Source of the DNA: Bdellovibrionota bacterium
GTDB taxonomy: Bacteria > Bdellovibrionota_C > UBA2361 > JBGSMV01
Assembly (NCBI GenBank): GCA_044356455.1
Contig: JBIKWF010000093.1
Span: 1-18,226, forward strand
Direction: 5' to 3'
DNA length: 18,226 bases
Made by a program: the position numbers and the translations under genes. The notes under the pieces were generated by a model. It saw nothing but the letters and a program-made list of their open reading frames with translations, was not told where the DNA came from and did not search any database. Positions 1 through 2,873 of the stretch are shown piece by piece; the first letter of the stretch is position 1; the number at the start of each line of letters is the position of its first letter.

Positions 1-1032
1 CGCGACGAGTCCCACGACTTCCTCAAGCGTCAAATCCGCAAAGAGAAATGAGCCAATGGCTTCTCCAAGTTCAAGCACAAGATTCGTGCACAGCGCCGCC
101 GACCAAGCGCCCTTTTCGGTGAGCTTGCCCTCTTCCACGTACCCAAGACGACCAAGACCTTCAAGCATCTTGCGAAGCGTGACGGCTTGGCGACTTTCAA
201 CATCCTCAGCTTCACGCAGTTTTCTGCGTACGCGCTTTTCGGCCTTTTTCTTTGCCTCACCAGCCAGCTTGGGGCCTGACTCTGAAAAGAGCTCTGCCTC
301 CATGTGCATACTTTCTGCGCGAATATGGTGCGCTGCCTTACGGTCGAGGAACGACGCCAAACTTCTCTCTACCGTGAATTGGAGATCGTCAACATTTCTG
401 AATTTAAGCAGGTTAAGGATCGTTGAAGGCGCAGCAAAATAAGCTGACCGCAATGGCTCAGGGGGCTGACGCGAAACTTCGTGAATGACGCGCGCGTCAG
501 AGAAGGTTCCAGGAGCAACGAGGCAAAACCCCACGGCATCCCGTCCTCGGCGCCCGGCTCGTCCTGACATTTGCTGAAACTCAGAGGCACTCAAGGTGTT
601 AAAACCCTCATTGCCGCGTTTGCTATGAGCGGTAATCACCACCGAACGCGCAGGGAAATCCACTCCCGCCGCAACCGTTCCTGTTGCAATCATAAGCCGT
701 AGCGCGCTCTTGGTCATGAGCTCTTCAAGCAGCAAGCGCCAGGCGAGAAGCTGTCCCGCATGATGCGCGCCGCAGCCTGTTTGGATAAGCGCTTCATACT
801 GGACATGGCCAAGAATCACCGAGCGCTCGAGCTGGTATTTTACAATCAAAGCCTCTACCTCGGCGGCAAGAGACTTCTGCTGCGCCTCGGGAATAATAGC
901 GGAGCGCGTTCGGGAAAGTTTAAGAATGTCCGTGTCGCACTGCCTTCGTGAAGTGCGAAAAAGTATGGCAGGGAGCAAATTGTCCGCAGCAAGCTGCTGG
1001 ATAAGTTTGGGAGCTGGATATTCCTGAATCAT
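1..1032 (-). CDS. Ski2/HelY-like SF2 helicase, C-terminal half (RecA2 domain plus helical/DSHCT-type region); runs off the left edge
   Basis: Absent from the ORF track because no stop lies in the window. Manual translation from ATG at 1032 gives MIQEYPAPKLIQQLAADNLLPAILFRTSRRQCD (motif IV), AHHAG, IATGTVAAGVDFPARSVV (motif V), EFQQMSGRAGRRGRD (motif VI), PLRSAYFAAPSTILNLL and LGRLGYVEEGKLTEKG. The frame is open to base 1. GAGG lies 6 nt before the ATG. Confidence 0.9.
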   Translation of the reverse strand, partial: MIQEYPAPKLIQQLAADNLLPAILFRTSRRQCDTDILKLSRTRSAIIPEAQQKSLAAEVEALIVKYQLERSVILGHVQYEALIQTGCGAHHAGQLLAWRLLLEELMTKSALRLMIATGTVAAGVDFPARSVVITAHSKRGNEGFNTLSASEFQQMSGRAGRRGRDAVGFCLVAPGTFSDARVIHEVSRQPPEPLRSAYFAAPSTILNLLKFRNVDDLQFTVERSLASFLDRKAAHHIRAESMHMEAELFSESGPKLAGEAKKKAEKRVRRKLREAEDVESRQAVTLRKMLEGLGRLGYVEEGKLTEKGAWSAALCTNLVLELGEAIGSFLFADLTLEEVVGLVA

Positions 1033-1847
1033 CGGCGGCCTCGCTGCGAACCACGAGGGCCTCTTGAGCTTCGTCTATCATTTCCACGAAAGCCCCCTCT
1101 TCTTCCACCTGAAGGCCCGCGCCCCGCGGACTCATGGCCGGGGTGACCGTAATACTGCTGCACTTCGCGAAACACATGTCCACGCTCGTCAGTCAGTGGG
1201 AGTACTCCCATGTCAGGATGCAAGAAGCCAAAGCGCAATTCCACAGGCCTGTCCTTTTTCGTCACGACGCGGCACGGCTTCTGACGGACCTCTTCGATCC
1301 ATTCTTTAATTTCGTTTGCGTTAGAAATTGAGGCTGAAAGCATAAGCAAGGTCGAGGAGCGCGGAGTAAGAATAATGCTCTCTTCCCAAACAGGCCCACG
1401 CTGCGGATCCGCAATAAAATGAACCTCATCAAGAATCACAAGCGAATAACGCTCGGTACCTCGGTAGAGTTCATTACGATAAATTTCTGTGGTGGCTACT
1501 ACCACATCCGCGTCGCCTTCTATCTTTCTATCCCCCGTGAGAAGCCCGACGGTGTGCGTTGGTTCAAAACGCTTCTTGAGGTCGGTGTATTTAGTATTCG
1601 AAAGTGCTTTAAGGGGCGTCGTATACACGGAGCGTGATTTCTGTCCGAGCGCAGCTTTGATGGCTTCAAGCGCGATATAGGTTTTGCCAGAGCCTGTGGG
1701 CGCCACGACGAGGGTATCTACACCCTCAGTAACACTCAGCACCGCCTCGCTCTGAAAATCATCGATAACAAAGTCCGTCACGGGGGGAGTTCCGATTCCG
1801 GAGAGAAGCCTTGCGCGCGCTTCTTCTATGTAATGTCCACGGCTCAT
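1029..1847 (-). CDS. Ski2/HelY-like DEVH-box helicase, N-terminal half (RecA1 ATP-binding domain) with Arg/Gly-rich C-terminal tail
   Basis: APTGSGKT (motif I), YTTPLKALSNTKY (Ia), LLTGD, ATTEIYRN (Ib), ILDEVH (II), LSAS (III), RPVEL. Ends GRGPSGGRRGGFRGNDRRSSRGPRGSQRGRR*. ATG at 1847 preferred (GAGGA upstream); TTG at 1865 is the alternative. Confidence 0.9.
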   Translation of the reverse strand: MSRGHYIEEARARLLSGIGTPPVTDFVIDDFQSEAVLSVTEGVDTLVVAPTGSGKTYIALEAIKAALGQKSRSVYTTPLKALSNTKYTDLKKRFEPTHTVGLLTGDRKIEGDADVVVATTEIYRNELYRGTERYSLVILDEVHFIADPQRGPVWEESIILTPRSSTLLMLSASISNANEIKEWIEEVRQKPCRVVTKKDRPVELRFGFLHPDMGVLPLTDERGHVFREVQQYYGHPGHESAGRGPSGGRRGGFRGNDRRSSRGPRGSQRGRR

Positions 1848-1880
1848 AAACAACCTATTCCTCAAAAACCCCTGTCACCT

Positions 1881-1944
1881 GGACACTGCCCCTTGAGCGG
1901 ACACTGCCCCTTGAGCGGACACTGCCTTATGAGCAGACACCGCC
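1881..1944. repeat. 18-bp tandem repeat, about 3.5 copies
   Basis: ggacactgccccttgagc (1881-1898), identical copy (1899-1916), ggacactgccttatgagc (1917-1934), partial agacaccgcc (1935-1944). Confidence 0.95.
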
Positions 1945-1973
1945 GCCAGGGCATTGCGCCAAATTGGCAATGA

Positions 1974-2828
1974 CTAATGAACATTACTTCCTTCAGTATC
2001 AAAGCGGCACGAGATAAATTTCTTAAGGTGCTGATCCGTAGTGGCGAGCAACTCTTGCAAGGTCCCCTGAAACGTAACCGTCCCATCAAACAAAGCAAAG
2101 ATTTTCTCTACCACCGGCAGCAAGCGCCTTAAATCCTGACTCACAATAAGCATCGTTGGTTTGTATTCCCGATGCATCTCCACTATCAAATTCATTATTA
2201 CGCTGCTCGCCACCGGATCGAGTCCGGCCGTGGGGTCATCGAGCATGACGTACGGGGGGCGAGCCACCAGGGCCCGCGCCAGAGAAACTCTTTTACGCAT
2301 GCCCCCACTTAACTGACCAGGAACTTTATACGCCGCGGCGGTAAGCCCGACCCGCTCGAGCATGGCAGAGACACGTTCGTGCACCGAAACGGCAACTTCA
2401 TGCGGGAGGTGGGCCGAAGGGACCTGTCCTCCTACCAAGGGGAAAGCGACATTATCGTAGACCGTAAGGGAATCGAAGAGCGCGCCTTCTTGAAACATCA
2501 GGGCCAAGTCCTTACGAGAGTGCGGGGTTTCCGTGCCGCCTACCGCCGCAAGAAAACCGCTGCCCTGCTCATTCGAATTCTTGCCAAGGCGATGCGTTCG
2601 AATTCCGCCGTCGACGTCTACGGGACCTGCCGAGGTCTCAACCCCACTCACAAAGATACGGCCTGAGTGGGGACGAAACACCCCTCCCATCACCTTAAGG
2701 AGAACACTCTTGCCCGCTCCTCCTGGGCCAATGAGACCAGAAAGCGACCCTTCGGGGAGCTCTAGAGAAACATGGTGAAGAACGGTTCGCGAACCAAAGG
2801 ACCGCGAAATATTATCGACTCTTAGCAT
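1974..2828 (-). CDS. MlaF/Mkl-like ABC transporter ATP-binding protein with degenerate catalytic residues
   Basis: Walker A GPGGAGKS; MFQEGALFDSLTVYDNVAFPL (Q-loop typical of MlaF); signature LSGGMRKRVSLARAL; Walker B YVMLDDPTAGLDP; switch VSQD. Start is ATG 2828 (MLRVDNIS) or GTG 2858. Confidence 0.85.
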   Translation of the reverse strand: MLRVDNISRSFGSRTVLHHVSLELPEGSLSGLIGPGGAGKSVLLKVMGGVFRPHSGRIFVSGVETSAGPVDVDGGIRTHRLGKNSNEQGSGFLAAVGGTETPHSRKDLALMFQEGALFDSLTVYDNVAFPLVGGQVPSAHLPHEVAVSVHERVSAMLERVGLTAAAYKVPGQLSGGMRKRVSLARALVARPPYVMLDDPTAGLDPVASSVIMNLIVEMHREYKPTMLIVSQDLRRLLPVVEKIFALFDGTVTFQGTLQELLATTDQHLKKFISCRFDTEGSNVH

Positions 2829-2873
2829 CAACGAAATCTTTAAGAACAGCTCAAACACTCTCCCGAGAGCATC

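Follow-up and report, generated by a model that had tools for sequence, protein, structure and literature searches.

A Ski2/HelY-type DExH helicase predicted to be a heterodimer encoded by two adjacent genes throughout a bacterial phylum

Two adjacent genes, which we call helA and helB, appear to divide between two chains a helicase that is normally a single protein. They lie on the reverse strand of an 18,226-nucleotide (nt) stretch of DNA from a Bdellovibrionota bacterium (GenBank assembly GCA_044356455.1, contig JBIKWF010000093.1), hereafter the window, whose start is the first base of its contig (C64) in a genome of 216 contigs and 4.7 Mb. We put at about 0.85 the probability that helA (1847-1029) and helB (1032-1) are intact, co-oriented and translationally coupled genes, encoding an arch-less DExH helicase of the Ski2/Mtr4/HelY type as a heterodimer. 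In helicases of superfamily 2 (SF2), ATP is hydrolysed where two RecA-like domains meet, here RecA1 and RecA2, and these are almost always carried on one chain.

Results

The two genes carry one set of helicase motifs

A preliminary description of this DNA had placed motifs I-III on the open reading frame (ORF) 1847-1029 and motifs IV-VI on a second ORF beginning at 1032, with both sets intact. Each motif was located as described, motif Ia likewise on the first ORF, and the SF2 motifs I, Ia, Ib, II (of the DExH form), III, IV, V and VI are all present, over two polypeptides. Alignments of 30 sequences for each half show the catalytic motifs to be invariant or nearly so, with a mean column identity of 59-62%. 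The product of helA (subunit A) matches the Pfam family DEAD (PF00270) with an E-value of 1.6e-24, and the product of helB (subunit B) matches Helicase_C with an E-value of 9.7e-6. A full-length B homologue from the same genus, of 470 amino acids (aa), matches DSHCT (PF08148) over residues 301-463 (E 5.6e-14). A winged helix is followed by this helical-bundle/DSHCT domain, the arrangement by which Ski2-like helicases are recognised.

Profile searches against the PDB returned Ski2, Mtr4 and FRH as the best matches of subunit A (E about 2e-54, covering A 23-236), while subunit B matched MTR4 (E about 5e-44) in two stretches, 304-562 and 762-944. Ski2, Mtr4, FRH and SKIV2L lead both searches, with Brr2 and Hel308 far weaker. 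The archaeal DNA helicase Hel308 was rejected as an identity for the pair, since A scores 96 bits and B 66 bits where the NCBIfam equivalog cut-off is 1200. The arch, an insertion (stalk and KOW) in the winged-helix region, was not found in B, the alignment of which skips MTR4 563-761, and A and B together come to about 740 aa, as against about 1000 aa in Mtr4/Ski2. In the source databases the split halves are labelled 'ATP-dependent RNA helicase HelY' or 'superfamily II RNA helicase'. Judged by its sequence, the pair is an arch-less Ski2/Mtr4/HelY-type DExH helicase in two chains.

The pair resembles the eukaryotic proteins Mtr4/Dob1, Ski2/SKIV2L and FRH in its DExH motifs, in the strand and hairpin that come after the RPxPL linker, and in possessing a winged helix and a DSHCT/helical bundle. 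Mtr4, Ski2 and FRH are however single chains of about 1000 aa with an arch, whereas the window encodes two chains and no arch, and chain ends take the place of the loop that in Mtr4/Ski2 runs between the hairpin-helix and motif IV. The nearest one-piece relatives are bacterial HelY and other one-piece DSHCT helicases (Actinomycetota, Acidobacteriota, Armatimonadota), which possess DSHCT and are 44-54% identical to the RecA1 half. In contrast to the window pair these are single chains of 650-990 aa, many of them with a basic or RG-rich linker at the site where the window's protein is cut.

Among 5.8 billion clustered proteins, 5601 relatives of split size (149-476 aa) were found at E <= 0.001. 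The split-size relatives reach E-values of 1e-107 to 1e-178, and the best 120 of the 5601 are all 242-308 aa long and 63-100% identical. The best longer proteins in the same set are only 41-54% identical, with a best E-value of 1.4e-60 at about 50% identity, and no one-piece relative above about 54% identity was found among the 5.8 billion. Named longer relatives belong to Acidobacteriota (Pyrinomonadaceae), Armatimonadota, Fervidibacterota and Acidimicrobiia; the close relatives of the window are labelled Bdellovibrionota, uncultured Bdellovibrionales, Oligoflexia and similar metagenome-assembled genomes.

The split is conserved across the phylum

The preliminary description had proposed that related genomes be searched for the split. 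Junctions were read at the nucleotide level in 37 distinct loci and in one of three further rows with frames of 751-773 aa, and in 38 of these 38 distinct related loci a stop codon follows the basic tail of the RecA1 gene and a start codon then opens the RecA2 half. Both RecA-like domains on one polypeptide were found in none of the 38, and none of these relatives has a single fused ORF. At E <= 1e-20 the RecA1 gene is present in 119 of 124 genomes of the phylum, among them all 73 with a completeness of 90% or more and a contamination of 5% or less; completeness in the five genomes lacking a match is 55-97%. Within the window's order, 39 of the 41 genomes have a RecA1 gene of the size seen here. 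No one-piece frame was found in the 119 phylum genomes that have the gene. The frame around the RecA1 match measures 236-347 aa in the phylum, except in contig-end fragments, in one degraded copy (genome G010) and in the three rows at 751-773 aa. Direct translation showed that in each of these three rows the basic tail ends at a single in-frame stop, and that an ATG and the RecA2 half come next.

The junction itself varies considerably between the 37 loci. The distance from the helA stop to the helB start is -4 to +8 nt in 29 of them, 14-20 nt in three and -17 nt in two, where the start is uncertain, with single loci at 83, 201 and 438 nt. Relative to helA, the helB frame is 0 in 12, +1 in 5 and +2 in 20. 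TAG is the helA stop in 17 loci, TAA in 12 and TGA in 8, and helB begins with ATG (27), GTG (6) or TTG (4). The ATGA junction seen in the window occurs in 3/37, and one-base overlaps of the TAATG/TGATG type in 8/37. Since frames, stops and spacers all vary, neither a single indel nor a single recoding rule accounts for the layout, whereas an ancient fission with drifting junctions can produce such variety.

At one locus (L012, the same as L027) we observed a 219-nt unit repeated 2.8 times with 98% identity at 2370-2990. The unit comprises the end of the helA tail, TAG, ATG and the first ~70 helB codons, and its repetition gives rise to the 438-nt spacer, in which two truncated helB starts precede the real helB. 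This is either a duplication of the junction or an assembly artefact.

Independent assemblies repeat the junction

Contigs assembled from sequencing runs of two other studies cover the locus. A contig from run X2 spans 645-2000 with zero differences from the window. A 6-kb contig from run X4, representing a diverged strain in activated sludge, spans 1-2000 with 62 substitutions, and its indels all fall in 1872-1931, upstream of helA and outside both genes. The runs matching window 1-2000 derive from lake-water and sludge metagenomes, and none of the 24 public runs that match this stretch is an RNA run. Of the 38 substituted positions listed, 36 are at third codon positions (31/33 in helB and 5/5 in helA); 39 further differences lie outside this count. 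This bias towards the third position, seen in each ORF's own frame, argues for purifying selection on both frames as annotated. Taken together, the sequence comparisons show the split to be ancient and kept phylum-wide, with both frames evidently under purifying selection.

These observations bear on the simplest alternative, namely that the real gene is one frame and that a 1-nt assembly or sequencing error in 1033-1074 has broken it. The assembly consists of 216 contigs, and one-piece relatives possess a basic linker at this place, as the preliminary description had remarked and as we found in one-piece proteins, so that an indel here would look alike. However, the split recurs in 38/38 loci with different frames, stops and spacers; in 12/37 the two halves are in the same frame and are separated by a plain stop codon; and the contigs from the two other studies repeat the junction with no indel in 1-1871. 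An indel can in our judgement be set aside almost completely. The proposal of a natural fission into a two-subunit helicase, on the other hand, gains support from the 38/38 split loci, the varied frames and the identical junction in contigs of other studies.

A second alternative is that a programmed -1 frameshift or read-through of the stop yields a one-chain helicase. The window's helB is indeed in the -1 frame relative to helA and overlaps it. The ATGA overlap, the GAGG 6 nt upstream of the helB start and the TAG at 1075-1077 closing the helB frame, all of which had been pointed out earlier, are present in the sequence. We scanned 1020-1100 in all frames and found no slippery XXXYYYZ heptamer; together with the frame relations, which vary between genomes, this agrees with the earlier view that a programmed -1 frameshift is unsupported. 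The TAG at 1077-1075 closes the B frame 15 codons upstream of the B start. No single rule would fit frame relations of 0, +1 or +2 and spacers some of which contain extra stops, and at most loci inspected a start codon occupies the same place before a conserved E-[FY]-P motif. In a second split lineage, described below, the halves are usually not even adjacent. Recoding is thus very improbable.

It could also be argued that the split is a pseudogenising lesion which has left one or both halves non-functional. The gene can be lost: in a 1.9-Mb genome of the same order (G010:C17:232628-233400) the RecA1 gene is broken by one TGA and four TAA codons, and from its sequence it looks like a decaying copy. 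Against decay as an explanation for the split stand the motifs, which are invariant or nearly so phylum-wide at 59-62% mean column identity, and the concentration of strain variation on third codon positions in both frames. We give this explanation hardly any weight.

The cut lies within RecA2 and leaves a basic tail

The preliminary description had put the cut exactly between RecA1 and RecA2, and on this point it has to be corrected. Beyond the RPVEL linker, subunit A still has a strand, a hairpin and a short helix (200-233), which we aligned to Mtr4 and Ski2, and subunit B starts with a helix and a strand leading into motif IV. According to this alignment and to the complex model described below, A carries the first RecA2 strand, hairpin and helix. 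The refined position of the cut would be past the first strand of RecA2, some 35-70 residues into the domain, where one-piece relatives have a basic loop. Motif VI is part of RecA2 in SF2 helicases. In the model A 203-209 pairs with the strand that follows motif VI, so that the RecA2 sheet of B gains a strand from A. In the general SF2 topology, too, the first strand after RPxPL belongs to RecA2, which is in line with the model. The available text of PMC9023267 and PMC5931499 gives no residue ranges for the domain borders of Mtr4/FRH.

The last 30 aa of subunit A contain on average 31% R and 27% G (37 loci), and the last residue is R in 30/37. One-piece relatives (P0245, P0264, P0300 and P0327) have at the cut site a variable linker that is often basic or RG-rich, which suggests that the A tail is the remnant of that loop; the earlier suggestion that a former linker now forms a free RG-rich tail on the RecA1 subunit is thus in keeping with the one-piece proteins. 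In an AT-rich relative, P0241, the tail is Lys/Asn-rich and not R/G-rich, indicating that charge is conserved rather than an RG motif. The tail may have the role in RNA binding or condensates that the preliminary description considered possible; its R/G codons double as the Shine-Dalgarno sequence, or ribosome-binding site, of helB.

A complex of the two subunits is predicted

Since the window's own B is cut, we folded the complex with a pair from the same genus (L003; 293 + 470 aa), using 30-row alignments and three controls. The pair scored 0.78, against 0.20 for the best of the three controls. Of 157 solved complexes 116 reach this level, as do 2 of 215 mismatched pairs, figures that apply only approximately here since we supplied alignments of our own. 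The runs share at least 68% of contacts, and the partners have a predicted local distance difference test (pLDDT) value of at least 85. In the model A 203-209 runs parallel with B 167-173 in constant register, with an expected error of 0.4-0.8 A, and the interface includes the N-terminal segment of A against the C-terminal domain of B. The two-chain modelling proposed in the preliminary description therefore speaks for binding as far as the score goes (0.78 vs 0.20), but the same result may mirror solved one-chain structures.

The model is also relevant to the possibility that the products work apart or only transiently together, with A as a stand-alone RNA-binding ATPase bearing an RGG-like tail and B as an adaptor, or with a helicase that is regulated by association. 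It would be consistent with this that the tail is basic even when it is made of Lys and Asn (P0241), and that in 8/9 loci of the second lineage the RecA2 gene was not found within flanks of 0.7-3 kb, which would allow separate regulation. In the phylum, however, the genes are adjacent and mostly overlap or lie a few nt apart, as would be expected for an obligate pair, and the model places a strand of A inside the sheet of B. Moreover, the known SF2 ATP site requires motifs V and VI in addition to I-III, which counts against A acting by itself. We therefore consider separate action unlikely and prefer an obligate heterodimer.

A second lineage is split at the same place

In a set of 1.84 billion representatives we found a 297-aa protein, P0248, with a short Arg-rich tail at the same cut place. 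In metagenome loci of this type (L054-L067) the RecA1 gene ends 12-18 codons past the same helix in 13/13 loci covering the spot, a count that leaves out two loci running off their contigs. This second lineage has in common with the window the cut site and the Arg-rich tail, but its halves are usually unlinked whereas those of the window are adjacent. At L055 a RecA2 half of 611 aa starts 591 nt downstream, behind an opposite-strand gene. Of the nine second-lineage loci with at least 670 nt downstream, eight yielded no RecA2 half on either strand within flanks of 0.7-3 kb. The 611-aa half aligns end-to-end with the back 620 aa of one-piece Pyrinomonadaceae-type proteins at 47-50% identity, and with window-type B in two pieces only, at 39% and 26%.

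A quick maximum-likelihood tree of RecA1 was made from 66 rows chosen from the matches and 232 columns. The window lineage forms one clade (17 rows) with a Shimodaira-Hasegawa-like approximate likelihood ratio test (SH-aLRT) value of 100, whereas five one-piece proteins fall together with the second lineage (SH-aLRT 99). A tree joining the two split lineages has a log-likelihood lower by 25.7 and was not rejected by the approximately unbiased (AU) test (p 0.15). From these sequences two independent fissions appear better supported than a single origin, though they are not proven.

Opposite-strand genes follow RecA1 at two loci of this lineage, a 134-aa ORF at L055 (915-1319, reverse strand) and a 294-aa ORF at L067 (4000-4884, reverse strand), the latter being presumably, by eye, a short-chain dehydrogenase. 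As these genes are unrelated and on the opposite strand, the halves of the second lineage do not form an operon there. Three short RecA1-only proteins from other clades were considered as split lineages and not accepted: P0250 (283 aa) is probably a truncated call, as a 767-aa protein falls into its 90% cluster, the end of P0261 looks out-of-frame, and P0249 (293 aa) was not counted.

Features and surroundings of the locus

The features of helA and helB are collected in Table 1. The C-terminal ~100 aa of helB were found at the very end of another contig, C82 (G000:C82:16526-16831). This fragment corresponds to residues 368-469 of the same-genus B homologue, with 67% identity, so that C64 and C82 are neighbours with a gap of ~24 codons and the truncation of helB in the window is an assembly gap and not biology. 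The gene order dihydrouridine synthase, ATP-binding cassette (ABC) ATPase, helA, helB is common to the window and the same-genus locus L051.

Table 1. Positions of helA, helB and their features in the window
Feature	Position	Strand	Basis or conservation
helA, subunit A, 272 aa + TGA	1029..1847	-	ORF listing
helA content: N-terminal segment, RecA1, RPVEL linker, first RecA2 strand + hairpin + helix (model and alignment), R/G-rich tail			
Motif I (Walker A), APTGSGKT	1680..1703	-	A, P, T, both G, K and last T invariant in 30 sequences; S position S/A
Motif II, DEVH (DExH box)	1419..1430	-	D, E, H invariant in 30 sequences
Motif III, SAS	1329..1337	-	Invariant in 30 sequences
RPVEL linker, strand RFGFLHP, hairpin, short helix (A 200-233)	1149..1250	-	Aligns to Mtr4/Ski2 past the RPxPL linker
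R/G-rich tail of subunit A, 39 aa, presumed disordered	1032..1148	-	Sequence
GAGG, Shine-Dalgarno-like, within helA tail codons, 6 nt before helB ATG	1039..1042	-	Sequence
TAG closing the helB frame, 15 codons upstream of helB ATG	1075..1077	-	Sequence
ATGA, helB start overlapping helA stop	1029..1032	-	Sequence
helB, subunit B, first 344 of ~470 aa	1..1032	-	ORF; ATG at 1032-1030, runs off contig at base 1
helB content: remainder of RecA2, winged helix, start of helical-bundle/DSHCT domain			
Motif IV region, AILFRTSRRQCD	934..969	-	F, both motif IV R, Q, C, D invariant in 30 sequences
Motif V region, ATGTVAAGVDFPAR	646..687	-	Invariant in 30 sequences
Motif VI, QQMSGRAGRRGRD	538..576	-	Q, M, GRAGRRG and final D invariant in 30 sequences; first Q nearly invariant
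Strand VGFCLVAP after motif VI	511..534	-	Paired with subunit A strand in the model

Upstream of helA, the window's ABC-transporter ATPase (1974-2858, reverse strand) is 294 aa long, compared with 249 aa in L051, the extra length being an insertion just before the conserved LALMFQEGALFDS segment. The 127-nt spacer between this gene and helA contains an 18-nt tandem repeat at 1881-1944 (3.6 copies, 89% matches). As the indels of the run X4 contig all fall within 1872-1931, the length of this 18-nt array varies between strains. The array could be a promoter or regulatory element, or merely an unstable repeat.

Discussion

On the evidence presented here we propose that helA and helB specify one helicase in two chains. 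Translation of the two genes would be coupled by the ATGA-type junction, where Arg/Gly codons supply the Shine-Dalgarno sequence, and roughly equal amounts of the chains would result. Assembly would proceed by strand complementation, the A strand completing the RecA2 sheet of B, and also through contacts of the C-terminal domain of B with RecA1. Both kinds of contact would together restore the ATP site at the RecA1/RecA2 interface. The two-chain enzyme may then unwind RNA in the 3'-to-5' direction and serve RNA decay or ribosome-linked quality control, like its one-piece relatives. One of these, the HelY of Streptomyces, is described in the available part of PMC7157823 as a WblC-activated, ribosome-associated RNA helicase, the deletion of which causes a twofold change in tetracycline sensitivity.

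Several points weigh against this proposal. A canonical four-base Shine-Dalgarno motif (GAGG, GGAG or AGGA at -18 to -4 of the helB start) precedes helB in only 20/37 loci, and three loci have long helA-helB spacers, so that tight translational coupling is not universal. The score of the complex may echo the solved one-chain structures of Mtr4/Ski2, in which case it would reflect likeness and not binding, and the model was run on the same-genus pair L003 and not on the window's own pair. The domain assignment of the donated strand comes from that model and from general SF2 topology rather than from a solved structure of the protein. The two chains and their association are predicted from sequence and model, and the RNA-helicase function is a putative one, assigned by family membership.

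We found no description of a split Ski2/HelY helicase in the full-text literature, a coverage that does not extend to subscription journals. Split helicase genes as such are already on record, and the pair is not a new kind of enzyme. In a table of PMC3655853, the split genes of two Nanoarchaeota include reverse gyrase and a 'large helicase-related protein'. These genes (reverse gyrase; NEQ003/NEQ409) provide, as far as that table goes, a precedent for genes of SF2-type helicases existing in two natural pieces. They differ from the present case in that the Nanoarchaeota are archaeal symbionts with strongly reduced genomes, the pieces are unlinked, the split sites differ between the two species, and the family is another one (Lhr).

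For annotation, the finding means that thousands of ~270-aa proteins labelled 'DEAD/DEAH helicase' or 'HelY' would be a subunit of a pair and not fragments, and pipelines that flag such proteins as truncated, or that merge them, would err. A wider idea, which we offer tentatively and think may well prove wrong, is that the loop after the first RecA2 strand, hairpin and helix is a general seam of Ski2-like helicases, at which the motor can be cut and still work, and that independent cuts there, in at least two bacterial lineages, have given an obligate two-chain SF2 motor held together by strand complementation. Were this true, helicase activity could, where the halves are unlinked, be controlled by the timing and amount of each subunit. 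Apart from this wider idea, the split points to a place inside RecA2 where nature tolerates a break, a loop that is basic and presumably disordered, and it offers a natural two-chain system for studying communication between motor domains, in which one half alone can be labelled, mutated or titrated. Its presence throughout the phylum suggests that covalent linkage of the two halves is dispensable for helicases of the Ski2/HelY type.

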